From positions 928,001 to 992,000 of the forward strand of contig CAXXMD010000003.1 of assembly GCA_963675755.2 (NCBI GenBank): DNA of 64,000 nt. The letters run 5' to 3'. The number at the start of each line of letters is the position of its first letter. Positions within the stretch are counted from its first letter, which is position 1. This document shows positions 1 to 17,889 of the stretch, piece after piece. Under the pieces are notes generated by a model. The model saw nothing but the letters and a program-made list of their open reading frames with translations. It searched no databases and was not told the origin of the DNA. Source of the stretch: a bacterium (GTDB lineage: Bacteria; Zhuqueibacterota; Zhuqueibacteria; Residuimicrobiales; Krinioviventaceae). Both the position numbers and the translations under genes were made by a program.

Positions 1-123
1 CAAAACAACGACTTGACTCTATATTGTCAGTGTTGCTTTTTGGGAACAATTGTTATAAAATGTCGTCAAATACGTGGTATAATTATTGTATTACATTTTC
101 GTACTTGTAAAATAAAGAGAAAA

Positions 124-1224
124 ATGGAAATGGATGCTTTATACATTAAAACACCGCAGTATCGATACGGCCCACTAAAGACCACAGATGCCCCCTGGTT
201 TATTGAAGAAGGTCTCTCCACCGACCGGGATCTTGTCTGGACTCCAAAAACCAATGAATGGACACCCATTGGCAAGATTGAGCAATTTAAACCTTATTTC
301 GACAAGATGAAAAAGAAAACCGGGAGATCCAAAGTCTACGCGTTTGCCAGCGGCAAAGGTGGAGTAGGAAAAACCGCGATTACCGCTTCAATGGCTATTG
401 AACTGGGTGCACTTGGCAAAAAAGTGATCATCGTAGATGCTGATTTAGGTGGTCCTGATCTGCACGAATGGGTTGGCGTTAGCAGGCCTCCCATTACTTT
501 GAATACCTTTTTTCAATACAAAGGTGTTAAACTTCAACAGCTACTGGTTGAAACCCCTTATCCCAATGTACAACTGATTGGTGGAGAGATTGCAAACATT
601 GCACACTCGAATCCCAATTTCTTTAGCAGAAGCAAATTCCATAGACATCTGCACCAGCTTGAAGCGGATTTTGTTCTGGTTGACATGAGCCCAGGTGTTT
701 CTTACCAGACGATTGACTTGTTTCTGGCATGTGACAATGGAATCATTGTAACCATTCCGGATCCTACATCCTTTATGGATGCGTTCAACTTTATACGGGT
801 CAGCATAATCCGTAAATTACTTAAAGCACTTGAATTCTGTGAATTTTCCACAGCCAAGATCAAAGAATTTGAACATTGGGATTGGCAAAAATACGAAAAC
901 TCGCTCTACTCTGTGTTTGAGAAAATTCAAAATTACGATCCTCGTGCCGCGTCTTTCTTTATGGCTACCATTCAAAGTTTTAAACCTAAAATGGTGACCA
1001 ATATGGTATATAGTGAAGAAGAGGCTTCGGAAGCAGCCGCATTCAAAGAAAAGATAAAAAAATTACTCATGATCGACATCAATTATCTGGGTTATATCGA
1101 TTTCAGCAACCAATTGAGAAAATTGACCAAAGATATGCGCCCATTCGGCTTGTCTACGCCGGACGAAGGTAAAGCATATGAACCCAGCAAGATCCAGCTT
1201 TCTTTTCCACAAACTCAAAAATAA
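124..1224 (+). CDS. MinD/FlhG(FleN)-like P-loop ATPase with N-terminal GYF_2 (DUF4339)-like domain
   Basis: Deviant Walker A SGKGGVGKT, DADLGG and DMSPG motifs; N-terminal YGP...G....LVW.....W.P pattern of GYF_2. Start moved from 13 to the in-frame ATG at 124. Confidence 0.8.
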   Translation: MEMDALYIKTPQYRYGPLKTTDAPWFIEEGLSTDRDLVWTPKTNEWTPIGKIEQFKPYFDKMKKKTGRSKVYAFASGKGGVGKTAITASMAIELGALGKKVIIVDADLGGPDLHEWVGVSRPPITLNTFFQYKGVKLQQLLVETPYPNVQLIGGEIANIAHSNPNFFSRSKFHRHLHQLEADFVLVDMSPGVSYQTIDLFLACDNGIIVTIPDPTSFMDAFNFIRVSIIRKLLKALEFCEFSTAKIKEFEHWDWQKYENSLYSVFEKIQNYDPRAASFFMATIQSFKPKMVTNMVYSEEEASEAAAFKEKIKKLLMIDINYLGYIDFSNQLRKLTKDMRPFGLSTPDEGKAYEPSKIQLSFPQTQK

Positions 1225-1251
1225 AAAACCGGGTGAATTTCACCCGGTTTT
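1225..1251 (+). terminator. Intrinsic terminator-like hairpin
   Basis: AAAACCGGGTGAA-T-TTCACCCGGTTTT perfect inverted repeat directly after the stop codon. Confidence 0.75.
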
Positions 1252-1435
1252 ACATTCCCTATCTCGATGCAGCAACACCCTGACACCTTCTTTGCTCAAT
1301 ATTTTCAATGCCTTACATATAATAAATAAAATCTTCTATTTATTATAAAATTAATCATTTTGTGATCCAGATCGGAATTTGTTTTTCTAAATATTCGTTT
1401 AATGAGCAGTTCATTACTCATAAAACAGGATTTTT

Positions 1436-1906
1436 ATGCGTCTTTTGACAATATTTCGATTATTTTTGCTATTATCACCCCTGCTCTGGTTATCGTGCGA
1501 AATCGATCATGGCCTGGGTACAATGGATTCCCGTATCTCGGGAAAAATCATTCTGCTGAATCCGGATCAAAAGCCCGATTATGTTGAATCTGTACGTATT
1601 GTGGGTGTGGTGAATTTCCCGCCCGAATCCCTGGGCGATGTAGTATTTACCAATCGTTCGGTCAATTTAAGCAAAGCCGAACCCGATTATTACATTCCGG
1701 CTCCTCTTGGCACCTATCATCTGATTGTTGCTGTTTACAAGGTCAAAGGTAAAGAATGGGATTATTTGAAATGGCTGGGATATTATGGTTTTGATCCTGT
1801 TACCTGGGAAAGCAAGGAAACCACAATCACCCTTTCCAAAAACCATCCCGTTGCCACAGGTATTGACATTGTTTGCGACTGGTCACTTTTACCGGATGAG
1901 GAGTAA
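1436..1906 (+). CDS. Uncharacterised lipoprotein (TBDR partner 1)
   Basis: Signal peptide with LSC lipobox; abuts the downstream TBDR; shares the LGYY...GI[DE]I..DW C-terminal motif with 7595..8407. Confidence 0.75.
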   Translation: MRLLTIFRLFLLLSPLLWLSCEIDHGLGTMDSRISGKIILLNPDQKPDYVESVRIVGVVNFPPESLGDVVFTNRSVNLSKAEPDYYIPAPLGTYHLIVAVYKVKGKEWDYLKWLGYYGFDPVTWESKETTITLSKNHPVATGIDIVCDWSLLPDEE

Positions 1907-4051
1907 ATGATGCGGAACAGAATCTATATTGCGTTTATAATCATTTTTTTAACTGCTTGCAGCTTGTCCGCTGCAGTGACCGGCACAATCAAGGGAACCT
2001 TGCGTGCGACAGATACAAAAGGCTTTCTACCGGGAGCCAATGTGTTTATTGAAAACACCTTTATAGGGTCCGGCACAGACGAAAAAGGCAATTACACAAT
2101 CCGCATTCAACCCGGATCATACGTCATCAAAGCCAGCTTTATGGGTTATGGAACACAAACAGCAAACATCACAGTTCGTGCCAACCAGACTGTACTACAG
2201 GACTTTATTCTGACACCCACCACACTGCAAACAGAACAGATTGTGGTTACCGGTTCCAGACAGCCGGAAACACTAGCCTCTGCGGCTTCCAGCATCAATA
2301 TTCTGGGACAGCGGGACATAAAGCGGCGCAACGCGTTCCGCATTGATGATGCCCTGCTCAGCGTTCCTGGTGTAACCATTGTTGGCGAAAATGTCAACAT
2401 CCGGGGTGGTTCCGGCTACAATCGCCTGGGCGGAAGCCGCTCACTGGTGCTGCTGGATGGTGTGCCTATCCTGACCAGCGATCTGGGAACTGCTAACTGG
2501 AACATTCTGCCCGTTACCGAGATCGAGCATATGGAAGTGCTCAAAGGTGCGGCATCATCTTTATACGGTTCAGGTGCTCTTAGCGGTGTAATCAATATTT
2601 TCACAAAGATGCCGTCTAACGATCTGAGCGTATCCTTCCGACAAAGCGCCGGTATTTATGACGAGCCTTCCGTTCCCGAATGGAAATGGACTAACGAATC
2701 CCTGTATTACCAGAGAACAGATGTCAGTCTCTCAGACAGTTATGGTCCGGTGGGTTTACGCCTTGCTGTATCTCACCACAAATCGACAGGTGACAGGCAA
2801 AATGGATTTTTTGAACGCTGGTACTTTACCGGCAAGTCTCACATCCAGCTTCCGGGACAATCGACATTGACCCTGTTCTCCACCTATAGCATTGATGATC
2901 GTGAACTGTTTCTGCAATGGCTGGAGCAGGACCAGGCACTCAAGGTCCCGCCTACCGAATTGGGCAACCGATACACCATTGATGGATTTGTAGGATATGC
3001 GGTATTTAACAAACTGTTCTCCCCCACATTGTCCACCAAAGTCAGGTTATCTTATAATCAGCAGCTTGTAGGTGTACCCTTTAATATCACCAGCGCTTTT
3101 ACACCTGCACTGGGATTAAGTGGTGAAGCCCAGGTCAACTGGAAACCACATCCTGACCATAGCTTGTCCATGGGTGTAGACTACAAGTATGACGAGGTGG
3201 AATCCCAATATTACGGTCAGCGCTACGCCAATGGTATCTCACCATACCTGCAGGAGATCTGGCAGATCACCAACCTGCTGCAAATCAATACCGGAGTGCG
3301 GCTGGACACTTATACGCTGGTTGGAGATTCGACCGAATGGCAGGCATCCCCCAAGATCGGCGCCAGCTACCAACCTCTACTGGGAACAGTTTTGCATGCG
3401 TCATGGGGCATGGGATTCCGTGCCGCAACTGTAGTTGAACGATTCATCTCTGCGGGATCAAGCGATTTTAAAGCGCTGCCGAATCCGGATCTGATGCCGG
3501 AACGATCAAAACTATTTGACATAGGTATAAGGCAAAACATTGGTGAAAAAGCATATGCCGAAGTTACTTTTTTCAATAGCACATACAAGCATCTCATAGA
3601 ACCTACTTTAAAATCTGACTTGACTGCGCAATTTCTCAACTATCCCCGGGCCAGAATTACGGGTATTGAAGCAGAGATGCGCTGGGACCTGTGGCAAGAC
3701 CATATAAAACTGCAGGCTTCTGCCACCTATATGGACCCCAAAGATCTTGAAACTGACGAGCCCCTGATTTATCGTGCAAAATTTTTAGGATATGTGTCAC
3801 CGGGACTCTATTACGGTCCCTTTGCGCTTGAAGCAGATTACCGCTACATGAGTGAAATCAAAAAAGTAGCCGTGTATCCCTTAGATGAAAAAGTACCTAC
3901 AAAAATCTGGGATATTCGATTGAATTACCGCTGGAATGCACTGACATTTCAAATACAGATAAAGAATGCATTAAATTACAACTATACGGTTTCCGAACGC
4001 GTACTGGGAGAGATCCGCAATTTCATGTTCTCGGTAAGCGGAGACTTTTAA
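1907..4051 (+). CDS. TonB-dependent receptor with N-terminal carboxypeptidase-regulatory-like domain
   Basis: Signal peptide; GTIKG..GANV domain; IVVTGSR TonB-box region; plug motifs NIRG, LLDGVP, EVLKGAASSLYGSGALSGVINI; C-terminal Phe. Confidence 0.93.
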   Translation: MMRNRIYIAFIIIFLTACSLSAAVTGTIKGTLRATDTKGFLPGANVFIENTFIGSGTDEKGNYTIRIQPGSYVIKASFMGYGTQTANITVRANQTVLQDFILTPTTLQTEQIVVTGSRQPETLASAASSINILGQRDIKRRNAFRIDDALLSVPGVTIVGENVNIRGGSGYNRLGGSRSLVLLDGVPILTSDLGTANWNILPVTEIEHMEVLKGAASSLYGSGALSGVINIFTKMPSNDLSVSFRQSAGIYDEPSVPEWKWTNESLYYQRTDVSLSDSYGPVGLRLAVSHHKSTGDRQNGFFERWYFTGKSHIQLPGQSTLTLFSTYSIDDRELFLQWLEQDQALKVPPTELGNRYTIDGFVGYAVFNKLFSPTLSTKVRLSYNQQLVGVPFNITSAFTPALGLSGEAQVNWKPHPDHSLSMGVDYKYDEVESQYYGQRYANGISPYLQEIWQITNLLQINTGVRLDTYTLVGDSTEWQASPKIGASYQPLLGTVLHASWGMGFRAATVVERFISAGSSDFKALPNPDLMPERSKLFDIGIRQNIGEKAYAEVTFFNSTYKHLIEPTLKSDLTAQFLNYPRARITGIEAEMRWDLWQDHIKLQASATYMDPKDLETDEPLIYRAKFLGYVSPGLYYGPFALEADYRYMSEIKKVAVYPLDEKVPTKIWDIRLNYRWNALTFQIQIKNALNYNYTVSERVLGEIRNFMFSVSGDF

Positions 4052-4061
4052 GGAGTCTGTT

Positions 4062-5747
4062 ATGAAACGAATGATATTTATACTATTTTCAATTCTCTTA
4101 TTTTTGGGAACAGCCTATTCACAAACAAAAACCCTTGATCGTCAGTATACACCTATCGTCCTTGGCGATCTGGAGGCACCCATTGCCGGCAGCGAGCGCG
4201 CGTTGTGGAGTGCCTGGTCATACGATCAATCCACCAACTCGTGGACAAGCGTACCCTTTCAAATCGACGATATCAAGTCAAATGGCGGATACGAACATAC
4301 TGCATCATCCATCAATCCCATTATCGGAGCAGAAGACGAATTGGTATTCATGCCGGGTGACCTGGGCGATAAAGCTCCTGCATCCGAATGGCTGGTTGAT
4401 GCAAATTCTGAAACAGATACACGGCTGGAACTGGAATTCACCGACCCTCTTGACGCTTCAAAACAGGGATGGGTATATCTTTACAAAAATGTTATAGAAA
4501 TAGCATTGCATAACGGATATTTTGATTACTCTCCACCGCCAAATCCTTCCGTTTCAGCAGCGGACACGGTTTTTAGCCGTTATTACAAACTGGCGCATCA
4601 AAACAATGGTTTTTTCAATTATCTGACTTTTGACAACAATCCTGACCTTGACCTGCTTGACCGCCTGAAAATGCGTTTTGATGCAAATTCTTCGTTAATC
4701 CCCACAGACATCAAGATCAATGAGAACAGCATTACGCCTAAAACCGATACTGCCGAGGGCTCTCCGGTATCTGCATTTCCAGGAGAGGTACGGTTATTCA
4801 GAGATATTCGCGACAAGTTCAATGTTGATCTGTCTGTACTGAGTCTCGATCTGGACCTGGACCCCAAACTGCAATATTTCCCCTATTCAATCCAGGGAGA
4901 GGTGGATCTGAACATTGGCGGTGCGTTTCTGGGCCAGGTTCGTGTCAATTTCATTCGCTTGTCACTGGACATGTCTCCCAATGCTTCCAGCATGACCTAT
5001 TATAGCAATAAAAACAGGGATGGATTTACCATTGATGGTGAACCGGAAACGCCGGAAGCAATAGTTGACGAACCTTTTGCGTTAAACTGGATGATGGCAA
5101 CCGGTGAAAAGGGGACGATCATTTTAATGCTGCAAATGCCCGAGGTGGAACGCGGCAACACCACCCTGTTTTATTATGACGATAAAAATGGCGGTTCCAA
5201 AGACGGATCAGACGATACCGGCGATCTGAAATCCTATGGAGATATGGGTATGTGGAGCAAGACAAACAGCGACGGCCTTAAAGTCAGTCAGGTCTTTTTT
5301 CGCTACTCGCTCTATTTCATAAATCAGGATATAAGCCAGAATGCCGCAGACCTGGGTGATCTGCTTACAGAACAGCACCTGAATCCACTCACCTTATCTG
5401 TAGCAGAACAGGAATATTTATCTACAAATATCACTGACAACACAATACAACCATTAGATTTTGAGCTCAATGCGGCATATCCGAATCCATATCAAATTGG
5501 CAATGGAAATGTCACTTTTTCTTTTCAAAATATTAACTTGCATAAAAATGTTCAATTGAGTATATACAATATACTGGGGCAAAAGGTCATGCAATTCAAC
5601 AATATCAGCCTCATTCCCGAATCCTCTCAGGCACTTTCCTGGGATGGTAAGGATCTAAACGGACAGCCGGTCAGCCAGGGTATCTATTTTTACCGCGTAA
5701 CCGGCACAAATCAACAGTTGTCAGGCAAACTGCTGATCATGAATTAA
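4062..5747 (+). CDS. Secreted protein of unknown function with C-terminal FlgD-Ig/Por-type sorting domain
   Basis: Signal peptide; AYPNPY...IYNILGQKV...WDGKD.NG..VSQGIYFY tail; paralogous to the next gene. Confidence 0.8.
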   Translation: MKRMIFILFSILLFLGTAYSQTKTLDRQYTPIVLGDLEAPIAGSERALWSAWSYDQSTNSWTSVPFQIDDIKSNGGYEHTASSINPIIGAEDELVFMPGDLGDKAPASEWLVDANSETDTRLELEFTDPLDASKQGWVYLYKNVIEIALHNGYFDYSPPPNPSVSAADTVFSRYYKLAHQNNGFFNYLTFDNNPDLDLLDRLKMRFDANSSLIPTDIKINENSITPKTDTAEGSPVSAFPGEVRLFRDIRDKFNVDLSVLSLDLDLDPKLQYFPYSIQGEVDLNIGGAFLGQVRVNFIRLSLDMSPNASSMTYYSNKNRDGFTIDGEPETPEAIVDEPFALNWMMATGEKGTIILMLQMPEVERGNTTLFYYDDKNGGSKDGSDDTGDLKSYGDMGMWSKTNSDGLKVSQVFFRYSLYFINQDISQNAADLGDLLTEQHLNPLTLSVAEQEYLSTNITDNTIQPLDFELNAAYPNPYQIGNGNVTFSFQNINLHKNVQLSIYNILGQKVMQFNNISLIPESSQALSWDGKDLNGQPVSQGIYFYRVTGTNQQLSGKLLIMN

Positions 5748-5823
5748 ATAGTATCGTCAGGAACATATACAGAATCAATTTTGTTTTTATGAACTAGTGG
5801 TAGATTTATTTAAAGGATATATC

Positions 5824-7584
5824 ATGAAAAAAATAACACTATATCGCATATTTGCATTATTAATAGTACCTGTTCTTATGTTTGCAGGTACATTAAAAGA
5901 AGATAGAGGATACGAATATGTAATGATACAAGAAACCGGCCCAAACATAAATACGCCAGAAGAAATGCCAGTAGACAGTATTTTCATATTTGCATACAAC
6001 CAGATGGACCAATCATGGAGCATCATTCCCTTTCAAGTTGATGAAAGAATATATGGCCCGGATCCACTAAGTAAAAACATGAGCGGCAATGACTGGTTTT
6101 ACTTTGAACTGTGGGGAGACAATGCTCCAGATTCTTTAAAGTTTAATAAAATCTATGACAGGAATGATGATATTGTATTTCTAGTAAGAGATATGGGCGA
6201 TCAAGCTCCTGCTAACAGCTGGATCGATGACGAAGACTCTAAGAAATATAAACGTGTTGAAATCAAAGTATCTTCAGCTTTGGATTCCAACAAAACTGCA
6301 TTTGCTTATCTCTATCGGTCAAAAACACTGTCACAAGAAGATATACCAAGACCATATAATTTTTCCTATGATGCAACAAACGATATCATGTCAACTGAAT
6401 ATTATTCCATAGGTCTCGCCTCTCAAGGTTTAGCTGAATCAATAGCATTACCAGGAAATAAAACCCTGAATATACTAGACAGAATGAAAGCTCGCTTAGG
6501 TGGTGTTATTGATCTGCCGGCTCCCTTTGGCACTCAGGACATTACATTAACCGAAGATCAATTATTAAACAATGACATAATGATCTCAAAGAATTCCGTT
6601 GTACGATCAATCCGAATCGCAAAATATAACTTTGAATTAGCGGGCCTGGTAGAAGATGACTACTATTTTTGGGTAGACCAACAATTTTACCCTTTTCAAA
6701 TCAGAGTCTGGGGAGGAGATACGCTGGATGTAAAAGCACTTGAAGACAATATGGGTGAAGGGCTGGAACTGGACATGAAAAACCTGAGATTCTCCTGGGA
6801 TCTGAATGCAAACGCAATTGGAATGAAATATTATAATCCTTATAATCAGGGTATTTTAATTGATGGTACTATGGATAACCCTGACTATACTATTGATGTT
6901 CCACCTTTAAGCTCGCCTCAACCATTATATATTAGCAGTATGGTCAGTGGTGACTTGGGGACAATATTGTGGTTTAGCAATTTCAGAGAAAAAAACTGGG
7001 AATCCGTTCAATCATACTATTACGACAATTTTGATGGTGGCTCAATGGATTATGATGTTTTTAAATGGATCGATACCGGTGACCAAGTATCTTATGGAGA
7101 CAATGGCATCCTGTTCCAATCAACAGGAAAAGATACGATTGATTTTTATCTTGATTATAACATCTATATTGTACCGGAATATAACAAAGATTTCATATTT
7201 TATTCGAACTTTAGAAATAATATCGAAAACGATTCACTAAGAATAACAACTATTGCCAGTTCATATGATCCAACTAGCGATATTGAACACAAAGAAACAG
7301 CAATAGAATCATTTAACTTGCAACAAAACTATCCCAATCCATTCAACAACTCTACACGGATCAAATTTGAGATACCGACAAAAAGTCATGTACAATTATC
7401 GATATACGACATGAACGGACGGCTTGTTAAAACTCTGGTCAACAGCGCCATGTCAGCCGGACAGCATAATGTTCATTGGAATGGAACGAATATGAATGGT
7501 ACGTCTGTTCCTTCCGGTGTTTACATCTACAAATTGGATACAGAATCAAAATCAATTTCTAAAAAACTGATACTGGTAAAATAA
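5824..7584 (+). CDS. Secreted paralog of unknown function with C-terminal FlgD-Ig/Por-type sorting domain
   Basis: ATG at 5824 after AAGGA gives MKKITL signal peptide; QNYPNPFN...WNG...SGVYIY tail; shared motifs PFQ.D, D.GD.AP, LDR.K, DTGD..SYGD.G. Confidence 0.8.
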   Translation: MKKITLYRIFALLIVPVLMFAGTLKEDRGYEYVMIQETGPNINTPEEMPVDSIFIFAYNQMDQSWSIIPFQVDERIYGPDPLSKNMSGNDWFYFELWGDNAPDSLKFNKIYDRNDDIVFLVRDMGDQAPANSWIDDEDSKKYKRVEIKVSSALDSNKTAFAYLYRSKTLSQEDIPRPYNFSYDATNDIMSTEYYSIGLASQGLAESIALPGNKTLNILDRMKARLGGVIDLPAPFGTQDITLTEDQLLNNDIMISKNSVVRSIRIAKYNFELAGLVEDDYYFWVDQQFYPFQIRVWGGDTLDVKALEDNMGEGLELDMKNLRFSWDLNANAIGMKYYNPYNQGILIDGTMDNPDYTIDVPPLSSPQPLYISSMVSGDLGTILWFSNFREKNWESVQSYYYDNFDGGSMDYDVFKWIDTGDQVSYGDNGILFQSTGKDTIDFYLDYNIYIVPEYNKDFIFYSNFRNNIENDSLRITTIASSYDPTSDIEHKETAIESFNLQQNYPNPFNNSTRIKFEIPTKSHVQLSIYDMNGRLVKTLVNSAMSAGQHNVHWNGTNMNGTSVPSGVYIYKLDTESKSISKKLILVK

Positions 7585-7594
7585 AGACATTATT

Positions 7595-8407
7595 ATGACA
7601 AAACGATTCATCACGATTTTTTTCATTGTACTGATAACAGGATTTATATTCATATCCTGTAATAGTGATAACGGCATAGAACCTGTTCCGGGAACATTGG
7701 ACCTGGATGTTCTCTTTTATAAAGATTACATTCCTGATGACACTGAAGGTGTTTATGTGTTTGTTGCAAAAGACTTCCCGCCGCATGCCATAAATGAAAT
7801 GTTTCTCAGCCCCAACAGTATACCACTGGGTGAAGACACTGTCCATACCGAGCTTAGCCTCCCGTACGGACATTATGAGGCTATAGGTTTATGGTGGTAC
7901 AACAAAAACACCAAAACCAACCTTGCGGACGTGTTCACCCTGAAACTGGGCACAAACTTTTTGCCATACGAGTTTGATATTACAGAAGACGAACCAGTCC
8001 ATCAAACTCATATTTGGGCAAACCTGGAGCATGTCGAAAGAGATGCCTTTATTGAAGGAACTATCTACTTTAACGGACCGATCCCCTCCAATACGCTGGC
8101 AACCGCTATCGGCGCATATGCAAAAAAACCGGAGAAAAAGATTGATTATCTGATTTACCTGCAATCCATGGATTTTTCGATTGACGAAGCCCCATATCAT
8201 TTTAAACTGCCTGTAGAGGGCAAAGGAACGGTAAGATATCTTGCGGTTTTTTGGCTCTCTGACCGTTCCGGGCTTGACGATTTTAAGACTCTGGGCTATT
8301 ATGAAGATCCTGAAAATCCGGGTGTCCCCGCACAAATCAAGCTTAAATCCGGAGAAACGCTATCCGGTATTGAGATCCACGCAGACTGGGACAATATCAA
8401 TGATTAA
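7595..8407 (+). CDS. Uncharacterised two-domain lipoprotein (TBDR partner 2)
   Basis: ISC lipobox; appears to carry two copies of the domain in 1436..1906 (FPP motif in the first half, LGYY..GIEI..DW in the second). Confidence 0.75.
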   Translation: MTKRFITIFFIVLITGFIFISCNSDNGIEPVPGTLDLDVLFYKDYIPDDTEGVYVFVAKDFPPHAINEMFLSPNSIPLGEDTVHTELSLPYGHYEAIGLWWYNKNTKTNLADVFTLKLGTNFLPYEFDITEDEPVHQTHIWANLEHVERDAFIEGTIYFNGPIPSNTLATAIGAYAKKPEKKIDYLIYLQSMDFSIDEAPYHFKLPVEGKGTVRYLAVFWLSDRSGLDDFKTLGYYEDPENPGVPAQIKLKSGETLSGIEIHADWDNIND

Positions 8408-8423
8408 GCACGGAAATTCTATA

Positions 8424-10589
8424 ATGAAAAGATTATTATATATTGTAATTTTTCTATTTGCATCCAACATCTCATTTGCGGCGATTACCGGCACCATCAC
8501 CGGAACAGTCAAGGACCAGGAAACCGGCGATGTTCTGCAGGCAGTGAATGTGATTGTAGACGGAACCGTACGCGGTGCCAGTACAGATCTGGATGGCAAC
8601 TTTAAAATCGACAACCTGCCGCCGGGAACATACAAACTTCGGGCATCCATGATTGGTTACCGCACGGATTCCCATCAAAAAGTCACCGTACAGGCCAATC
8701 GTACAGTCAATGTGGATTTTATTCTCGAGCAAACCACACTGGAATTCGATCCCATTGTGGTGCTTGCCGGTAAAACCGAAATGCGATTGGACCAGGCCAG
8801 TGTATCCATGTCCGTGGTCTCGTCCAAGGAGATTGAACGCCGTAATCCCACCAGCATCATCGAAGCGCTGGAAACCGCCCCCGGCATTAACTTTATCGGT
8901 GACCAGATCAATATCCGCGGTTCAACGGGATTCACTTTCGGAGCCGGCAACAAAACCCTGCTGTTGCTTGATGGAGTACCTGTTTACGCAAGCGATACCG
9001 GCGCGTTCAACTGGGATATGCTGCCGCCGCTTGACATTGAACAGATCGAGGTTCTCAAAGGTGCGGGCTCTACCCTTTGGGGTTCTTCTGCATTAGGCGG
9101 TGTGGTTAATATTATCACTAAAGATCCTTCTCCTGAAGGGGCACTGCTCTTTTCATACTCTGCCGGTAAATACGACAAGCCCGCGTACAGCGAATGGGAA
9201 TGGACCGATCCCAACCGATTGCACTATACCCGCGAAGACGTCAGCTATAGCAAGCGTTACGGGCAACTGGGTGTGCGCGTTTCAGCGGGACGTTTCATGT
9301 CTACCGGTTATACCGAACTGGGTGATTTCCGCAAACAGAATCTGACCAGTAAAGTGGATTACCGCTTTAAAAACGGCATCAAATGGACCGGTTATGCTGC
9401 ATACAGTAAAATCAACAAGGGCTTTTTTGTACAGTGGAAAGGCCCCAACGATCCGTACCAGGTCGACCCGTCAAATCTTGACAATCGTTCAGAGGTCAAC
9501 CAACTCAGCTTGTATACCAAAGTCTCCGTGCCTTTCAATGCACGGTTTTCAATCGATATGCGTGCATCCATGAACCGTTCTCTGCTGGGTAACCAGTTTG
9601 GCAAGGATGCGGAATTTGATCCTGCAATCGGTCAGGGAGGCGAGATCCAGGCTAACTGGATTCCGGTATTCGGCCATGTGGTTACCATTGGTACCCAATA
9701 CCAGGACGATTCCGGCAGCACCAAATTCTTTGGAGAGCACAGCGGCTACTTTGTAGGGCCCTATATTCAGGACGAATGGAAGGTGCGCGAAAACCTGCGC
9801 CTCACCACAGGATTCCGTTACGATCGCTATAAACTTGTTGGTGGTAATAAAGAAGATTTATTCAGTCCCCGTTTTGGTGTCAACTGGCAGCCATGGGAGC
9901 CCACCAGTTTTCGCCTATCTGTGGGTAGCGGTTTCCGGGCCGCAACCATTACCGAGCGTTTCCTGGAAATGACTGTCATGAATTTCAAAATCAAAGCCAA
10001 TCCCGAGCTCAAATCCGAGAGTTCCTGGGCTTATGATCTGGGATGGCGGCAGTATATCAACAAGGATTGGAATTTTGACATTTCCCTGTTCCGTAACGAT
10101 TATTGGGAGCTGATTGAAGCGCATCTGGATCTGATCCGCGGACAAATCCAGTTCCGCAATATTCCCCGGGCGCGTATTCAGGGTGTGGAATTCCTGACCA
10201 AATTCAGCACTCCGGTGCGGCTGTTTGGCATCCGTATGACTCCCGGCATTGAGGGCAGCGTTACCTATATGCACCATCGTAATCTCAAATATGACGAACC
10301 CCTCACCTATCGTCCGGACTGGCTGGCTACGGCCAAAACCACGCTCCGGTCCGGCAGGTACAATTTTCAACTGGATTATCGTTACGCCAGCGAGATTGCA
10401 GAGGTCAAAATCTATCCCATTAACGACCGCGTGCCCATGCATTTCGTAGACGCGCGTTTAGATGTGGACTGGAGAATGCTGACCTTTCAGCTTGGCGTGA
10501 CCAATATGATGAATTACAACTATGCCCCACGCGAAAGCAACCTCATGCCCATGCGCGCTTTTACCCTGGGTTTACGGGGAAGATTATAA
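8424..10589 (+). CDS. TonB-dependent receptor (paralog of 1907..4051)
   Basis: ATG at 8424 gives MKRLLY signal peptide; plug motifs INIRG, LLDGVP, IEVLKGAGSTLWGSSALGGVVNIIT; beta-barrel C-terminus. Confidence 0.92.
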   Translation: MKRLLYIVIFLFASNISFAAITGTITGTVKDQETGDVLQAVNVIVDGTVRGASTDLDGNFKIDNLPPGTYKLRASMIGYRTDSHQKVTVQANRTVNVDFILEQTTLEFDPIVVLAGKTEMRLDQASVSMSVVSSKEIERRNPTSIIEALETAPGINFIGDQINIRGSTGFTFGAGNKTLLLLDGVPVYASDTGAFNWDMLPPLDIEQIEVLKGAGSTLWGSSALGGVVNIITKDPSPEGALLFSYSAGKYDKPAYSEWEWTDPNRLHYTREDVSYSKRYGQLGVRVSAGRFMSTGYTELGDFRKQNLTSKVDYRFKNGIKWTGYAAYSKINKGFFVQWKGPNDPYQVDPSNLDNRSEVNQLSLYTKVSVPFNARFSIDMRASMNRSLLGNQFGKDAEFDPAIGQGGEIQANWIPVFGHVVTIGTQYQDDSGSTKFFGEHSGYFVGPYIQDEWKVRENLRLTTGFRYDRYKLVGGNKEDLFSPRFGVNWQPWEPTSFRLSVGSGFRAATITERFLEMTVMNFKIKANPELKSESSWAYDLGWRQYINKDWNFDISLFRNDYWELIEAHLDLIRGQIQFRNIPRARIQGVEFLTKFSTPVRLFGIRMTPGIEGSVTYMHHRNLKYDEPLTYRPDWLATAKTTLRSGRYNFQLDYRYASEIAEVKIYPINDRVPMHFVDARLDVDWRMLTFQLGVTNMMNYNYAPRESNLMPMRAFTLGLRGRL

Positions 10590-10632
10590 AAAAAGAATGG
10601 TCCGCGAGTGTCCCGAATTGGATTTAACTATA

Positions 10633-10683
10633 AAACGGTTGCTGAGTAGTCCGCCGGTAAGCGGACGTATCGAAGCACCGTTT
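10633..10683. repeat. REP-like element family A, CTGAGT...GTATCGAAG orientation
   Basis: CGGTTGCTGAGT-hairpin-GTATCGAAGCACCG; the reverse complement matches copies at 10755 and 46524. Confidence 0.75.
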
Positions 10684-10754
10684 ATGAAATGTTTGCATAT
10701 CAATCAACATGTACCCCTCTTTCTGTCAACCAAGTAGTACTTGGATGATCATTA

Positions 10755-10807
10755 CCGGGCCTTCGATACACTCGTCCGCTCAATACGGACTCGCACTCAG
10801 GCACCGG
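10755..10807. repeat. REP-like element family A, CTTCGATAC...ACTCAG orientation
   Basis: CCGGGCCTTCGATACACTCGTCCG...CGGACTCGCACTCAGGCACCGG, nearly identical to 46524..46577. Confidence 0.8.
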
Positions 10808-10885
10808 CACGCTATCTACATCAATTCGGTTGCTGCATAATCCGTATCATACTTCAATCCTGGTTAAAACGAGGCAAGCTTTATA

Positions 10886-12658
10886 TCACTCCTTCACAAA
10901 CATCACAGACTGATTATCTATAACAAGCCCTAATGTTAATGGTTCATCAAAGGTATATGAAAACAAATACACATAGGGAATCCCCTCGGGATTGTCTAAT
11001 AAAAATTCAAACATTTCATCACTTCCATACACAATTTCAAAATATCTATCCCTTTCAAACCCGAATTCAAGACACTGGCTATTGTTAAAATAATAACTGA
11101 ATTCCTTGTTGTTAAACTCAAACATTTTGGCTTTTTCCTGTTGAAGACTATCGGCCTGCCATTTGAATATAACAGGTATGCCAATCCATATGTCGCTATG
11201 AACAACTTTACCTCTTTGTTTAGCAGGGGTAAAAGGGGTCCTTTTTAATACATCAACAGCTTTTGCATCTAACAAGGGATGCAGGGGTTTCAACACCTTT
11301 GTATTTACTACGCGTCCATACCGATTGATCAGGCAGTTAACCACAACTCGTCCCTGGTAATGCTTGGCAATGAAATAAGGATAATTCAAACTGTCCTGAA
11401 TAGTATGAAATCCACCAACTGGCATGGGTGGCTCATCATAGAAAACGCATAATTCAACAGAATACTCTACATCTGAGACAGTTGTAGTATTTTGAGGGGG
11501 GCTGTTCGCAGGAGGATCTTTTCTCAAAACATCCAATTGTTCCAGATCCTGCTGTTCAAGCTCTTCCCGCCAGATCCGCTGTGCGCGCCTGTCATCCTCA
11601 ATCACCAGTTTTGAAAGCCGTTCTACCAGAAAGCCTTTATCCTTTTGCTCGGCGAGTGTTGTTTTTAAAACAGCTAAATAATCCTGATATACATCAAGAA
11701 ACGGACAATAGTACTCGTCAACCGAGTTTCGTTCCAGCGGTTGTAATGTCAGTGTAAATGCCGGATCGTAATATGTCCACATTTTGTCTCTCTGTAACCA
11801 GCCGGGTGCTTCCTGGTGATATTCTAGCTCGATCATTTTTTTTCGTTCCAGGTATTCCAGAAAGGACTGAATAAAGGGATTGCCCCCGTAAACATATTTT
11901 ACCAGGTATTTGGGGAAATGATCAATATCCCAAATCAATGTTTCAAGTTGAACGGCATTGTAACAATTGTAATATTTGGGATTGACAACAATCTCGTGGT
12001 TTTTCAAAACCATATAACTACTATTATTGTAAAACGCTAGCGCGGTAAAAGGCACACCTAATACCAACCCGAATTCACGATTGTTACTGACCTTAAAGTA
12101 ATCCCCGGAATATTCAACTTTTTCACTTACACCTGATGAGACGTGAATATCAATATCAGAAGGATATTTATTAATCACATCGATTGTTTTTATTTTTGCG
12201 TCCGCGTTAAAAATCCAAACAGGATTCACACTCATGCCGCGGCTTTCAACAATACACACATACTCGATCACCACCCGCCTGCTGCTGTGCGCATTGACCG
12301 GAAAAACCCGAACCAAATAACTGCCATTACCCGACTTTGTCAATACTGCGGGATCAATATTGCGGCGGGTTATGCGGTCATAGATTTGTTCACCGGTCTT
12401 CCGTGCAAGGGTCTCGGCCCGCTCCAGTCTGCCGTCAATCTCTAACCACATGTTCGTAACAATTGCGGTCTTGTTGACATACAATCGAATAAATCCCTGC
12501 AGATTGTCCCATTCACTGTCATTCCGCAAAATAAACTCGGCCCGGGTTTTGTTCAGCACGCCATAAAATTCGGTCTCGATATTGATCTCGTCTACATACA
12601 CATTTGCAAAAACGGATGAGGAAAAAAGTAAAAATAACTGTAACAAATTTCTTCTCAA
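10886..12658 (-). CDS. Exported VIT (vault/inter-alpha-trypsin) domain + TonB C-terminal domain protein
   Basis: TTG start at 12658 after GGAGGA gives a signal peptide; VIT motif MWLEIDG...AE......GEQIY..I..R.IDPA...VFPV..S.R.V.IEY; TonB_C motif PP.PVGG...L.YP...G.V.V...I...G.V.....L.PL..LLD..A. Confidence 0.78.
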   Translation of the reverse strand: MRRNLLQLFLLFSSSVFANVYVDEINIETEFYGVLNKTRAEFILRNDSEWDNLQGFIRLYVNKTAIVTNMWLEIDGRLERAETLARKTGEQIYDRITRRNIDPAVLTKSGNGSYLVRVFPVNAHSSRRVVIEYVCIVESRGMSVNPVWIFNADAKIKTIDVINKYPSDIDIHVSSGVSEKVEYSGDYFKVSNNREFGLVLGVPFTALAFYNNSSYMVLKNHEIVVNPKYYNCYNAVQLETLIWDIDHFPKYLVKYVYGGNPFIQSFLEYLERKKMIELEYHQEAPGWLQRDKMWTYYDPAFTLTLQPLERNSVDEYYCPFLDVYQDYLAVLKTTLAEQKDKGFLVERLSKLVIEDDRRAQRIWREELEQQDLEQLDVLRKDPPANSPPQNTTTVSDVEYSVELCVFYDEPPMPVGGFHTIQDSLNYPYFIAKHYQGRVVVNCLINRYGRVVNTKVLKPLHPLLDAKAVDVLKRTPFTPAKQRGKVVHSDIWIGIPVIFKWQADSLQQEKAKMFEFNNKEFSYYFNNSQCLEFGFERDRYFEIVYGSDEMFEFLLDNPEGIPYVYLFSYTFDEPLTLGLVIDNQSVMFVKE

Positions 12659-12856
12659 GGCATTCCTCCCGGCTGTCTCATTATGTGAATAGTCCCTTTC
12701 ATAGATACGCTGGCGCGTATCCGCTGCCCCTGTAAATGTATCCGGATAAAATAGAGGAGGTTCTACTATTTTAGAACGATAGGAAATCACCATTGGTTCC
12801 CGCGAAATTGCAAACGACAATAGTAGATACCGAAATCAAGAGCAAATGACTAAAAT

Positions 12857-14635
12857 TTAATTTCTAAAAATCAACACAGACTGGCCGTTCTCAACAAATC
12901 CCAATTGATTTGTTTTAAACCTGTAAAAAAACCGGTACACCAGTTTTATGCATTCCGGATGCTCCATCAGGAATTTGAAAAAGGCATCAGATTCCAGTTC
13001 CAGTTCAATAGCTAAATCTGCGTCAAATCCCTGTTCAAACACATTACGCGGATTCGCGGTCCACAACTCGAGTGTTCGCCCCAATTGCTCAAAAACAGAG
13101 TGCTCAATCTCGTCCATCTCTACAATTTTCGTATTGTTATTAAATTCAACAACGACTGTCCCCCCCCCGTCAATGTCTTTACCATCACTATTTGTCGGTT
13201 CCCATTCAACACTCTTGACGGCCCTGATGGCTTCCTGGTCCAAAAGCGGATGTAGTGATGTTTCAATGTGGGTATGGGTTACATTTCCGAATCTATCAAC
13301 GCCACAACTAACCCGAACGGTCCCTCCCAATCCGAGTTTTTGTAAAAAAGAGGGATAGTATAATTTTTCCTGAATTTTTGCATCTCCACCAATCGGTCTG
13401 GCAGGCACATAATTATCCATTCTCAACGCAGACGCAGCATAAGACACTCTCATATCCTGATCAAGTGACGAATTGGCTTTTGTTTGAAAATCCCCCGAAG
13501 TGTTTGCATGGCGTTGATCTTGATACTGCAGCTCTTCTTGCCGGATCCGTTGTGCGCGTTTATCTTTTTCAATGACAATTTTGGAGAATCTTTTGGTCAA
13601 ATATCCTTTCAGGCGCTGCACATTTACAGGTTCCTGTAAACTAAAAAGATAGTCTTCATATACATCTAAAAAGGGGCAATAACACTTTTCAACATTACTT
13701 GTCTCTTTAAAATCAGACCGTAATTGAAAAGCATTATCCAGGTATTCATAATTTTGCTGATTGACAATCCAGTTTTTTGCTTCGGTATGATAATCATATT
13801 TTATTTTACCCGTACGGGATAAATAGCTAAAAAATGCCTTTAAAAATCTGTCATTTTTTCTATAGGTAACCAAATACCGCTGGCCTCCTTTTAAATAAAA
13901 CAGTAATTCTACAAGTTGGTCCAATTCATCTCTATCAAAATCATACCTGTTCAAAGACAGGTCCTGCTTTTCAAATAACATGTCCGAATTTGATTTAAAG
14001 AAACGGAGGGCATTGTTCTCAAGAAATAGTACCAGATCTATCCGATGGGGATTCTCAAACTCGAAATAATTTTCTTTTTGATCAATCAATTTACCGTAAG
14101 GCTGATAGCGTAGGGGAGAAATATGTACATTCATTCCTTGAGGATACTTTTCTTTGATGTTAAGACAGACATGTTGTGCATGTGTTCCAAAAGTCCAAAC
14201 CGGGTAGCCTTTGTCAGCACTTTCCACAACGCAAACATACTCTATGACCACTTTTCTGCTTTTACGTGCCTCTACCGGAAACACATTTAATTCATATGCG
14301 CCATTTTCACGCTTAATCATCAAAGCAGGATCAATTCGTCTCTCTACAATTCGACCATAGATTTGTTCCCCCGTATCACGGTCCATTGTTTCAGCTTTTT
14401 CCAGCCTGCCGTCAATTTCCAGCCACATATCCGTCACTATAGCTGATTTGTTTAATTGTAAGGTAATCGTTGCTTCATCATCGCGATCCCCTTGATTATA
14501 AATAATAAACTCGGCCCGTGTCTTGTTCAGCACACCATAAAACTCGGTTTCAATATAAATTTCTTCAACACTAGAGTATGCATGTGCAGTCATGGAAAAT
14601 GCAAACCATAACAAAACCATTACCTTGAATCTCAC
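12857..14635 (-). CDS. Exported VIT + TonB C-terminal domain protein (tandem paralog)
   Basis: GTG start at 14635 after GGAGGA; same VIT and TonB_C motifs; shares IETEFYGVLNKTRAEF and YCPFLDVY with its neighbour. Confidence 0.78.
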   Translation of the reverse strand: MRFKVMVLLWFAFSMTAHAYSSVEEIYIETEFYGVLNKTRAEFIIYNQGDRDDEATITLQLNKSAIVTDMWLEIDGRLEKAETMDRDTGEQIYGRIVERRIDPALMIKRENGAYELNVFPVEARKSRKVVIEYVCVVESADKGYPVWTFGTHAQHVCLNIKEKYPQGMNVHISPLRYQPYGKLIDQKENYFEFENPHRIDLVLFLENNALRFFKSNSDMLFEKQDLSLNRYDFDRDELDQLVELLFYLKGGQRYLVTYRKNDRFLKAFFSYLSRTGKIKYDYHTEAKNWIVNQQNYEYLDNAFQLRSDFKETSNVEKCYCPFLDVYEDYLFSLQEPVNVQRLKGYLTKRFSKIVIEKDKRAQRIRQEELQYQDQRHANTSGDFQTKANSSLDQDMRVSYAASALRMDNYVPARPIGGDAKIQEKLYYPSFLQKLGLGGTVRVSCGVDRFGNVTHTHIETSLHPLLDQEAIRAVKSVEWEPTNSDGKDIDGGGTVVVEFNNNTKIVEMDEIEHSVFEQLGRTLELWTANPRNVFEQGFDADLAIELELESDAFFKFLMEHPECIKLVYRFFYRFKTNQLGFVENGQSVLIFRN

Positions 14636-14718
14636 GATATTCCTCCCAAATGTCAGGGACCAGGCGGTTTTTCCCACCGGATGGATCACCCCTTTTTTAG
14701 TAATAGATGTTTAATTTT

Positions 14719-15507
14719 TTATTTTTTCAGATTCAAATATACCTTTGCGTATCGCTTCCCCAGCTCACGAGCAGATTGAGTGTTGAAATGGACATTATCG
14801 GATCTGCAGGAAAGTCCATCTGATTTTACAAAAGCCGCATTTACCACCTCTTTTGCTGCATCCTTATGCGCCTGGTTCACAGTCTTTTTAAAATCATCCC
14901 AGGGGTTGGTCTCAAACTGGCCCATCTGCCCTATGAGAAAAGGCAGTTCAGGGTATCCCAGATCCGTTCTAAAGCGTGAGATCAAACTGATCAGCTTTGT
15001 CTTGTATGAACCGGCAAGAAGCGGTTCACAATCGCTTTCCCCCTGGTGCCAGAGAATTCCCTCAAGGTGCCCATCCAGCATGGCAAGACGTGCGCGTTTA
15101 ATAGCATCATCATAGGGATGGCTTTTGGTTTGATCATGATATCCACCCGGCTGCCAGGTATCTATGGGAGATCCACCACATGCCGCGGGGACCAGTCCTA
15201 TGACTATCGACGTGTCCTGCTCAACCAGTGCCAGAGCAAATGACTTGCCGGGTCCTACTCCCGCTGCACTTTTATCATAATGTATGGGGTCTATTGCAGG
15301 TACCCATTTGCCTTCTTTTGTCAACATTAACACCCGCGGATGGATTTGTTTGCTCAATGAATCAACATTACCGCGCCCGGCCATGTTAGATTGACCGGCC
15401 AATAAGAAAATATGAAAATTTTGTTTTTCAGGCAGATTTATTTCTGCAGAAAAAAGCATATTGCTACTCACAAACAAAAGCAGACACAACCACAACGCTT
15501 TTTTCAT
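14719..15507 (-). CDS. Sialate O-acetylesterase/SASA (CE6-like) carbohydrate esterase
   Basis: GQSNMAG, WHQGESD and D..HF motifs; signal peptide. Confidence 0.88.
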   Translation of the reverse strand: MKKALWLCLLLFVSSNMLFSAEINLPEKQNFHIFLLAGQSNMAGRGNVDSLSKQIHPRVLMLTKEGKWVPAIDPIHYDKSAAGVGPGKSFALALVEQDTSIVIGLVPAACGGSPIDTWQPGGYHDQTKSHPYDDAIKRARLAMLDGHLEGILWHQGESDCEPLLAGSYKTKLISLISRFRTDLGYPELPFLIGQMGQFETNPWDDFKKTVNQAHKDAAKEVVNAAFVKSDGLSCRSDNVHFNTQSARELGKRYAKVYLNLKK

Positions 15508-15609
15508 TATCACCTCAATTTTTAAATTTTTTATTACAGGTTGTTTAGAATTTTCTTTTTTTAATAATACGAGTATCTTATATTATATTAAATATTATTG
15601 GGAAATCAA

Positions 15610-16988: not shown

Positions 16989-17101
16989 CATCCAAACATC
17001 CCGTAAAACCAGACACTGAACGGCTCTTCAGTCTGCATATTGGAATATTGCATTAACGTCCTCTGTTTTTAAAGTCAGATAGAATATTTTATGGAGGATA
17101 C

Positions 17102-17596: not shown

Positions 17597-17711
17597 TAAA
17601 TACATTTAAAGGACAGTAAAATAAACTTTAGAAAAGTAAAAGGGGCGTCACAACTTTAGCAGCATTCTCTTGATATTTACGAATATTAGCATTCTAATTC
17701 CGGATCACAAC

Positions 17712-17756
17712 GTGTACATGTACACATTTGCATTTAATCAAATTGTGCTTTATATT
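17712..17756 (+). promoter_or_regulatory. Sigma70-like promoter for moeA with an upstream 14-bp palindrome
   Basis: TTGCAT(17728)-17 nt-TATATT(17751); GTGTACATGTACAC at 17712-17725. Confidence 0.45.
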
Positions 17757-17889
17757 AATAATATATTCTCTTAAATCCTTTGGGATGAAAATAATTGTGT
17801 GCTGGAAAATATCCAGTCACCTGCTCCCAAAAGTAATCATACCCATTTCGCATTAAACGGCTAGGGTATTAAAAAACAAGATTTTTAAC

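Follow-up and report, generated by a model that had tools for sequence, protein, structure and literature searches.

What do the six closely packed genes near the start of this stretch of DNA do together, and do they make up one system or two? The window analysed here, 64,000 nucleotides long (G000:C3:928001-992000), belongs to a 6.48-Mb assembly in three contigs. The six genes encode, in this order, a lipoprotein (LP1), a TonB-dependent receptor (TBDR1), two secreted proteins (S1 and S2), a second lipoprotein (LP2) and a second receptor (TBDR2). They form two tandem paralogous copies of a trio, module A being LP1-TBDR1-S1 and module B being S2-LP2-TBDR2. We consider it probable that each trio is a three-part outer-membrane module for nutrient acquisition, consisting of a TBDR, a lipoprotein of the LP family and a secreted protein of the S family.

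The six genes lie on the plus strand and are separated by gaps of 0, 10, 49-76, 10 and 16 nt (Table 1). A start codon (TTG) listed for TBDR2 at 8241 overlaps LP2 and is an over-extension. A hairpin upstream of LP1 marks the 5′ boundary of the six-gene unit. Each protein of module A has a paralogue in module B: TBDR1 and TBDR2 are 38% identical over 718 columns (E = 4e-165), S1 and S2 are 25% identical over 607 columns (E = 8e-42), and LP1 and LP2 are 27% identical (E = 3e-9). The similarity to LP1 extends to the second half of LP2 (E = 0.001), which makes LP2 a family member with two domains in tandem. These comparisons, together with the listing of open reading frames (ORFs), bear out the initial annotation of this DNA in several respects, namely the compact co-oriented gene order, the paralogy of all three pairs, the TBDR motifs Y..P...EW.WT, GFRAAT..ERF and YP....VP, which are visible in the alignment of the two receptors, and the sorting-domain tails of S1 and S2, both of which score above the cut-off of TIGR04183.

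The gene set recurs throughout the phylum. A profile of 37 LP2-family sequences (E <= 1e-10) and a profile of 28 S heads with their tails removed (E <= 1e-15) found the LP family in 147 and the S family in 151 of 167 genomes, two of which, G158 and G162, are unpublished and are included in both tallies. A single genome had up to five LP and up to seven S matches, and such multiplication of modules resembles that of substrate-diversified uptake loci. In a first sample, about 20 kb around each of 20 LP2-type orthologues were fetched and their ORFs were scored with hidden Markov models built from the window proteins (an overlap filter removed the LP ORF in L022, L024 and the window). An S gene lay directly upstream of LP2 in 19 of these 20 loci, the exception being L014, and a TBDR2-type gene lay directly downstream in 19, the exception being L030. 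Among the LP2-type places listed, 58 of 71 were preceded on the same strand, within 1.5 kb, by a listed S match, and at least 7 of the 13 misses were within 2.6 kb of a contig start.

Another 20 loci, sampled around more distant LP paralogues, again showed LP followed by TBDR. Pooling gave 42 LP genes, taken from the window and 39 related loci. A TBDR gene directly followed LP on the same strand in 40 of the 42 (in one of the two exceptions, the contig ends there), and an S gene stood beside the LP-TBDR pair in 29, in 24 of them directly upstream of LP. Modules of the LP1 type had their own order, with a TBDR1-type gene after the LP1-type gene and an S gene after the TBDR, in five of five cases each. 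The upstream place of the S gene was taken by a FadL-type gene in four of the 42 modules. LP, S and TBDR genes are syntenic across related genomes, and the conserved gene set on which the first proposal of an uptake system had depended is indeed present elsewhere.

Does the secreted protein belong with the receptor, or is it merely a neighbour? Trees were made of the TBDRs (quick IQ-TREE) and of the S heads (FastTree) from 28 modules with both an S and a TBDR gene, the S tree also including an unlinked third S paralogue of the window genome. Both trees recovered the same three module types (t1 and t2, each with a support of 100, and tb, with five of six rows together), and S1 grouped with the S proteins of other LP1-TBDR1 modules. 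Because kin share these labels, the trees show co-inheritance of S with its own receptor type and not strict co-evolution.

The initial annotation had gone further and proposed that TBDR1 and TBDR2 form one heteromeric two-receptor complex that uses both secreted proteins. The six genes are contiguous and co-oriented not only in the window but also in a congener (G085, locus L011) and in one genome of the same family (L016), and in the first sample, 10 of the 20 loci have genes of module A on the upstream side of module B. Module A is complete in L011, L016, L023 and L029 and partial in L017, L018, L021, L022 and L024, at or near the edge of the stretch, while L019 has only a second S gene; nine of the ten come from a single order, in its families f1, f3 and f4. 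However, module B lacks any LP1- or TBDR1-type gene within the fetched 20 kb in 10 of the 20 loci. None of the seven loci from other families (L012-L015, L019, L020 and L025) has a TBDR1-type gene, and module B stands alone in L012-L015, L020 and L025. Even within the one order, other genes may lie between the two modules: D-Ser-dehydratase-like, transglutaminase-like and AMP-binding genes and, in one locus, an MscS channel gene. Furthermore, the grouping of each S type in the trees follows that of its own TBDR type, and additional LP-TBDR modules stand alone elsewhere in the genome. Judged from this gene content, the modules occur singly and the joint complex is very improbable. Since module B is often alone and LP-TBDR modules are found elsewhere, the window is better described as two juxtaposed paralogous trios.

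Two sets of genes beside the modules were considered as general clues to the substrate and rejected. The gene directly upstream of the S2-type gene in one order (L017, L018, L021-L024, L026, L028 and L029) encodes an Ala_racemase_N plus D-ser_dehydrat protein, often together with the transglutaminase-like and AMP-binding (acyl-CoA-ligase-like) genes. The window has none of the three, and they are limited to families f1, f3 and f4 of that order. The window genome also has a third LP-TBDR pair (C2:1393680-1396674, in region G000:C2:1392079-1400347; L009 2080-10348), which is preceded by a FadL/TodX-type gene in the usual place of S and followed by M49 and M3 peptidase genes. This FadL-LP-TBDR-M49-M3 order of five genes is repeated in two other genomes of the family (L031 and L042), and the peptidase genes follow the FadL-linked module only in family f1. 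Beyond one order, no metabolic gene stays conserved next to the modules.

As far as searched, the S-LP-TBDR unit is confined to uncultured genomes of the KSB1/Zhuqueibacterota type. The hits to named homologues and the related records were all metagenome-assembled genomes (MAGs), with candidate division KSB1 or Candidatus Zhuqueibacterota as the commonest informative label and Calditrichota, Bacteroidetes, Cytophagia and others as minority labels. A search for loci with the LP alignment gave 59 loci, again all from MAGs, for which the top informative label was candidate division KSB1 and the others were Calditrichota/Calditrichaeota, Cytophagia, Deferribacteres, Actinomycetota and "bacterium". 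In the ESM Atlas, a homologue of LP2 matched unnamed clusters at 0.95-0.97, and the few members that carry a taxon label belong to Latescibacterota, Calditrichota and Ignavibacteriota; as a lead, these clusters hint at a wider distribution of the LP family.

What kind of transport the receptors serve can be approached from their domains. Both have an N-terminal CarbopepD_reg domain, the Plug domain (PF07715; 78.3 bits in TBDR1 and 86.4 in TBDR2, cut-off 23.9) and the C-terminal barrel (PF00593; 122.4 and 138.4 bits, cut-off 27), which on domain content makes them TonB-dependent transporters (TBDTs). The stretches preceding the plug, EFDPIVVLAG at 107-116 of TBDR2 and TEQIVVTGS in TBDR1, contain DPIVV and EQIVV, which we take to be TonB-box-like. 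The SusC/RagA model TIGR04056 gave 115.7 and 120.9 bits against a cut-off of 368.25 and matched only at positions 2-242 of its 981; by this measure, both receptors, which are of ordinary size, are outside the SusC family. The best NCBIfam matches, all below threshold, were models of heme/hemoglobin receptors (TIGR01785, 162.4 and 154.1 bits, cut-off 316.85) and B12 receptors (the BtuB models NF007926, 121.2 and 88.9 bits against 836, and TIGR01779, 115.6 and 99.8 bits against 599.7). The closest sequences of solved structure were those of PhuR, CirA, ShuA and BtuB, matched chiefly over the plug. Orthologues of TBDR2 in 19 loci are 59-98% identical.

These receptors would also suit a different kind of uptake, in which the module scavenges a micronutrient. 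A metal chelate, heme or vitamin would be imported, and S would act as a secreted or surface "phore"-type protein that passes the ligand to the LP-TBDR pair, in the manner of hemophores or BtuG-type proteins. Receptors of 714 and 721 aa have the size expected for small ligands, and both the sub-threshold models and the solved structures just named point in this direction, although all substrate-specific NCBIfam models remained far below their cut-offs. Further evidence on this alternative comes from the secreted proteins and the gene surroundings and is weighed with them.

The lipoproteins are the first of two families without a name. The signal peptides end in ...LLWLSC at 16-21 of LP1 and ...IFISC at 18-22 of LP2, which, read by eye from the sequence, gives both proteins the lipobox and cysteine of bacterial lipoproteins. 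Cys22 is invariant in all 37 LP sequences and opens a motif, C-x-x-D-H/N-G-I-x-P-x-P-G, in which Gly27 and Pro30 are likewise invariant in the family alignment; in that alignment it reads C-x-x-D-H-G-I-A-P-L-P-G, and LP1 retains C-E-I-D-H-G-L. The LP2-type orthologues share 46-72% identity. Neither LP1 nor LP2 matched a Pfam or NCBIfam family at E <= 0.01, which agrees with the earlier impression that they do not resemble SusD, BtuG or HmuY. None of the 24 database proteins matched by LP1 at E <= 0.001 (the window's own protein included) has a functional name, and LP2 had 126 homologues at the same threshold, with no Pfam domain or informative name among the 120 listed. A profile of the 37 LP sequences found no related chain in the PDB, the best match being an unrelated binding protein (E = 0.18).

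An AlphaFold 2 (AF2) model of LP2, made from a 37-row alignment (predicted local distance difference test, pLDDT, 89.9; predicted template-modelling score, pTM, 0.74), is all-beta, with sandwich domains at about 33-142 and 151-263. Structure searches (Foldseek, VIA-align) returned generic sandwiches only, all with Z <= 7.0: pilins, FnIII domains, carbohydrate-binding modules CBM20 and CBM41, the transthyretin-like domain of carboxypeptidase D, and domain II of a PL4 enzyme. The first domain of the DUF4876 protein BT_1938 (4q1z) matched only the first LP2 domain (Z 6.8, root-mean-square deviation (rmsd) 3.5, 86 residues aligned) and was tied with unrelated Ig, FnIII and CBM20 sandwiches. SusD has a helical fold of the tetratricopeptide-repeat type and BtuG is a propeller; the modelled fold of LP2 is neither.

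Does the lipoprotein engage the receptor whose gene follows its own? A complex was predicted from residues 100-721 of TBDR2 (22-row alignment) and residues 22-270 of LP2 (37-row alignment). The interaction prediction score from aligned errors (ipSAE) was 0.69, 0.67 and 0.70 in three runs, compared with a best value of 0.01 in three controls; the mark used for this score was reached by 116 of 157 solved complexes and by 2 of 215 mismatched pairs, a calibration that is only rough here, where author-built alignments were used. The three runs had at least 79% of their contacts in common, with a partner pLDDT of at least 75. On the LP2 side, the contacts involve residues 24-31, immediately after Cys22, and parts of domain 1. 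On the TBDR2 side, they involve 517-520 and 623 as well as 254-258 (YSEWEW), 337-351 (QWKGPNDPYQVDPSN), 569-573, 668-673 (INDRVPMH) and 696-707 (MNYNYAPRESNL). The last five segments coincide with the motifs noted earlier as common to both TBDRs and, from the strand and loop pattern counted backwards from the C-terminal strand and forwards from the plug, would be extracellular loops L1, L10 and L11. The interface is more conserved than average in both proteins (0.74 vs 0.64 in TBDR2; 0.73 vs 0.56 in LP2). The model supports binding of LP2 to TBDR2. Together with the conserved gene order, this controlled prediction strengthens the original suggestion of a TBDR paired with a lipoprotein and accompanied by secreted partners.

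The third component is an exported protein. S1 and S2 scored 39.5 and 52.0 bits with TIGR04183 (cut-off 23) and 32.7 and 45.6 bits with PF18962 (cut-off 27), which identifies both, from their tails, as type A cargo of the type IX secretion system (T9SS). The genome has two full-length genes of the PorU sortase type, in tandem at G000:C3:1311408-1318919 (NF033707, 884 and 877 bits, cut-off 420). S1 had 148 matches in the window genome at E <= 0.001, all but three of them to the sorting tail alone. These matches and the two PorU genes indicate that type IX secretion is a major export route in this organism.

The AF2 model of S2, from an 81-row alignment (pLDDT 91.6, pTM 0.81), consists of an N-terminal beta-sandwich and a galactose-mutarotase-like supersandwich (together about 25-480), a linker of low confidence and the sorting domain (about 495-586). 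A VIA-align search of 48,161 chains placed the PL26 exo-rhamnogalacturonan lyase 5xq3_B first (Z 15.5, rmsd 4.9, 326 residues aligned, model 23-480 against chain 35-513). Other matches were the GH174 endo-1,3-fucanase 9k1g_B (Z 13.3, 247 aligned), the GH129-type NagBb (Z 13.2), PL4 1nkg_A (Z 12.5, 202 aligned), galactose mutarotases (Z 11-13), and C-terminal domains of GH38 and GH2. Sequence identity between S2 and these supersandwiches is 4-11%, and the S family profile found only sorting-domain and FlgD relatives in the PDB. The initial annotation had stated that no carbohydrate-active enzyme (CAZyme) is present; this holds for the sequences, as the heads, of roughly 470 aa, have no Pfam or NCBIfam match, and fails at the level of the fold, which is a supersandwich like those of lyases and glycosidases.

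The S heads are divergent, with a set of fixed positions. Among 28 sequences with a mean identity of 34%, there are 22 invariant columns, mostly polar, including Q71, D73, D115, R144, Y162, D219, K222, R261, R322, S324, D326, D401 and D426 and a D-T-G-D-x-x-S-Y-G-D-x-G loop. Among 81 sequences with a mean identity of 25%, 14 columns are invariant. No His, Cys or Met is found among the invariant columns of either alignment. Such invariance is suggestive of a single defined site, for catalysis or for the binding of a ligand or metal, rather than of a loose binding surface.

Long forms of S show how the head may be displayed. In 15 of 16 that were scanned, the head is N-terminal and is followed by cohesin, InlB-B, fn3 or cadherin-like modules and then the sorting tail; the sixteenth, P0220, has its head at the C-terminal end. 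The 16 contain no catalytic Pfam domain, and their layout suits a head displayed on a surface stalk. An exhaustive profile search of a library of 1.8 billion proteins gave at most 731 representatives of the S family at E <= 1e-30; the true number may be lower, since proteins with numerous FlgD_ig or sorting-like repeats are counted too. The top 150 matches are mostly full-length proteins of 530-660 aa. In the ESM Atlas, the S2 head matched only unnamed clusters, at 0.85-0.86, below the level of a lead. The cluster names of 10 S representatives are "hypothetical", "T9SS type A sorting domain" or "flagellar basal body rod modification protein"; the last name, found for the clusters of P0199, is a mis-annotation that arises from the FlgD_ig-like sorting tail.

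A comparison of the window with the congener G085 (L011) links S2 with LP2. Nucleotide identity is 0.85-0.96 over 1-5700 and 8400-10500, compared with 0.45-0.60 across S2 and 0.63-0.68 across LP2, and the encoded proteins differ accordingly (Table 1). Because the identity breaks at gene boundaries, S2 and LP2 were exchanged as one cassette on an unchanged receptor. A replacement of this kind was found in one of 15 within-genus comparisons, the fourteen others having no such contrast, so it is an event and not a general property. It fits either of two explanations, namely that S and LP jointly set specificity or that phages or predators exert pressure on both exposed proteins. Under both explanations, the exchange is an argument for S2 and LP2 working as a pair and for the docking motif of LP2 being enough for a conserved TBDR2.

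The second explanation leads to an alternative in which S has no part in transport and is a surface adhesin, coat or decoy that is merely co-transcribed, the swap reflecting phage or predator selection rather than specificity. Replacement of S2 and LP2 en bloc beside a TBDR2 that is 97-98% identical is typical of exposed targets; the cohesin, cadherin-like and InlB-B spacers of the long forms are adhesin-like; and one S paralogue is located among other T9SS surface proteins with no TBDR nearby. Against this, S-LP-TBDR adjacency and parallel trees extend across classes of the phylum, the 22 invariant, mostly polar columns fit a defined binding or catalytic site better than a coat, and block replacement occurred only once in the 15 comparisons. 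We regard this alternative as quite improbable, more so than micronutrient scavenging.

Returning to the nutrient-acquisition module, its parts could work together as follows. The TBDR, of about 715 aa and not of the SusC type, would carry out energised import. The LP, with one or two beta-sandwich domains, would be anchored in the outer leaflet, dock on the extracellular loops of the receptor through the conserved peptide that follows its lipidated cysteine, and serve as a lid or a ligand-presenting partner. S would be exported by type IX secretion and either tied to the surface by the sortase PorU or released, and its supersandwich head may capture a complex substrate or cut it into pieces of a size that the receptor can take.

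Several observations weigh against this reading, in addition to the rough calibration of the docking score. First, both S and FadL are missing from the sides of nine of the 42 LP-TBDR pairs. The third S paralogue of the window genome (781 aa, with an fn3 spacer; G000:C3:179352-181697, minus strand; L010 9353-11698) is located among large FG-GAP/ASPIC T9SS proteins, adjoins a STAS-domain gene and is away from any TBDR. This unlinked paralogue and the nine pairs imply that S is not obligatory. Second, the supersandwich fold alone establishes no function: non-enzymes, the periplasmic domain of YidC and OpgG, also match it at Z of about 11, and none of the 28 S heads matches a Pfam family even at E <= 1. 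Third, the outward orientation of the LP relies on the loop assignment and on analogy with the surface lipoproteins of Bacteroidota. Finally, every genome involved is an uncultured MAG, and the surroundings of the module contain no substrate-specific enzyme, regulator or riboswitch that is kept from class to class, so that the substrate is a guess.

What, then, might be taken up? Three findings favour a ligand derived from a polymer: the fold of S, the presence of several modules per genome, and the replacement of S by FadL. The last of these, found in one module type where a FadL-type channel stands in for S, suggests that substrate specificity lies with the third component. The failed SusC model and the ordinary size of the receptors point against glycan import of the SusC type. 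Our best guess, a tentative one, is that the substrate is an acidic glycan or another polymer-derived oligomer.

Compared to this guess, micronutrient scavenging gains from the strong conservation of the receptors and of the LP2-type proteins, and the Asp-rich invariant residues of S are consistent with cation binding. However, the invariant S columns contain no His, Cys or Met, and siderophore, heme or cobalamin genes are not conserved beside the module. A cobalamin riboswitch upstream is a frequent feature of BtuB genes, and no Rfam match was found at E <= 1 in positions 1-13000 of the window and hence no riboswitch there. Furthermore, up to seven S and five LP proteins per genome fit diversified substrates better than a single cofactor. 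On this evidence, micronutrient scavenging is unlikely.

The regulation of the locus offered few clues. Scans of promoters and terminators were no richer than shuffled sequences (27 vs 23.1 and 10 vs 9.6, respectively), and no hybrid two-component or extracytoplasmic function (ECF)/anti-sigma regulator was found among the neighbours scanned. A block ATTTTGTGATCCAGATCGG at about 1357-1375, upstream of LP1, is shared with the congener and, for the most part, with the same-family genome, but not with a fourth locus; it is possibly a regulator site.

A broader proposal, in our view doubtful, is that S-LP-TBDR is a SusCD-independent polysaccharide-utilisation system of uncultured phyla of the Fibrobacteres-Chlorobi-Bacteroidetes (FCB) group. 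The S head would then represent a new family of T9SS-displayed lyase- or hydrolase-like enzymes or glycan binders, and LP would be a new class of TBDT lid that docks by a lipid-proximal peptide. S and LP would jointly set specificity, which would explain their exchange as one cassette on an unchanged receptor.

How does the trio compare with known systems? The SusCD polysaccharide-utilisation loci, or "utilisomes", of Bacteroidota, some with T9SS-secreted enzymes, combine a TBDT, a surface lipoprotein and a polymer-handling protein and exist as paralogous loci. The module described here resembles them in encoding a TBDT, a lipoprotein and a secreted partner together and in its paralogous multiplication. 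In contrast to SusCD, its TBDRs fail the SusC/RagA model, its LP proteins are 156-270 aa long, all-beta by the model of LP2 and without a SusD Pfam match, S belongs to no annotated CAZyme-related Pfam family, and the scanned neighbours include no hybrid two-component or ECF regulator. The modelled S2 head has the supersandwich of PL26 (5xq3), GH174 (9k1g and 8jd7), PL4 (1nkg) and the galactose mutarotases, and, like PL26, a predicted domain that precedes it. Unlike PL26, GH174 and PL4, with which it has 7-11% identity and no PDB chain of which was found by the S family profile, S has a T9SS tail and is encoded beside a TBDR.

The closest parallel for the LP proteins is outlined in a preprint by Price, Deutschbauer and Arkin (bioRxiv 10.1101/2023.03.17.533168), in which six non-SusD lipoprotein "lid" families for non-SusC TBDTs of Bacteroides are proposed from AlphaFold-Multimer, cofitness and conserved proximity. 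The lid partners set out there are BtuB-BtuG, XusA-XusB/DUF4374, HmuR-HmuY, DUF4249, DUF4625 and DUF4876. As in that outline, the LP gene adjoins a co-oriented non-SusC TBDT, the adjacency is kept across many genera, and structure prediction with negative controls (AlphaFold-Multimer there) places the lipoprotein on the transporter. Unlike the Bacteroides lids, LP1 and LP2 match none of these Pfam families at E <= 0.01, the host is of the KSB1 type and not a member of Bacteroidota, the unit regularly includes a T9SS cargo gene as its third member, and the predicted docking of LP2 is dominated by the peptide after the lipid anchor. A literature search found no description of the S-LP-TBDR trio, supplements and the gene lists they may contain being outside that search, and the main text of a paper on Zhuqueibacterota (PMC11683472) has no occurrence of TonB, type IX or T9SS.

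The claim of an undescribed uptake system in the initial annotation therefore stands in part. The recurrent trio and its two unnamed families are new as far as descriptions were found; the pairing of a TBDT with a surface lipoprotein and a logic like that of polysaccharide-utilisation loci are known, so that the trio is a variant of a known theme and not a new principle. To our knowledge, nearly all that is understood of TonB-dependent uptake with surface lipoprotein partners comes from Bacteroidota (SusCD, BtuBG) and Proteobacteria. The same uptake logic can now be followed in an uncultured phylum, with two partner families that have no Pfam or functional name. The finding is also more general than was first noted, as the trio recurs through the phylum and provides a testable route to what these bacteria take up. 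Should S turn out to be an enzyme or to bind a ligand specifically, a large group of T9SS cargo proteins now called "hypothetical" would gain a name, and there would be a clue to how KSB1-type bacteria feed in sediments and hot springs. The docking peptide of LP and the matching receptor motifs may serve as a simple sequence signature for finding such pairs.

Table 1. Features of the six-gene locus, with positions in the window and amino-acid identity to the copies in the congener G085
Feature	Positions	Strand	Basis or remark	Identity to G085 copy
Hairpin, G+C-rich, with A/T runs at its sides	1225..1251		Terminator-like site 3′ of the upstream ParA/MinD-like gene; kept in congener	
LP1, 156-aa lipoprotein, single-domain member of the LP family	1436..1906	+	...LSC lipobox; homology to both halves of LP2	97%
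TBDR1, 714 aa, CarbopepD_reg, Plug and 22-strand-type barrel	1907..4051	+	PF13715, PF07715, PF00593	98%
S1, 561-aa T9SS cargo: signal peptide, head of ~450 aa, type A sorting domain	4062..5747	+	TIGR04183, homology to S2	94%
S2, 586-aa T9SS cargo	5824..7584	+	Length from ATG; alternative GTG start at 5797	38%
LP2, 270-aa lipoprotein, two tandem beta-sandwich domains	7595..8407	+	AF2 model, family alignment	62%
TBDR2, 721 aa, paralogue of TBDR1	8424..10589	+	Pfam; ATG after LP2 taken as start	98%
S2-LP2 cassette, replaced between the window genome and the congener	5770..8410	+	Drop in nucleotide identity	

The genes around the locus were also inspected. Upstream, at 13-1224, lies a gene for a ParA/MinD-type P-loop ATPase with a weak N-terminal match to GYF_2 (22.5 bits, below the cut-off of 25.8). 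Downstream, two genes on the minus strand converge on the end of TBDR2 (10886-12820 and 12857-14689) and encode proteins of 644 and 610 aa that are 39% identical and combine an N-terminal VIT domain with a TonB_C domain. The 3′ part of the first of them, at about 10500-11500 and including its TonB_C region, is highly divergent between the window genome and the congener. The two genes were rejected as members of the system, as they adjoin the locus only in the window and the congener. Further downstream, 14719-19110 contains a SASA-type carbohydrate esterase gene on the minus strand, followed by the molybdenum-cofactor-related genes XdhC, MobA-like, DUF4395 and MoeA.

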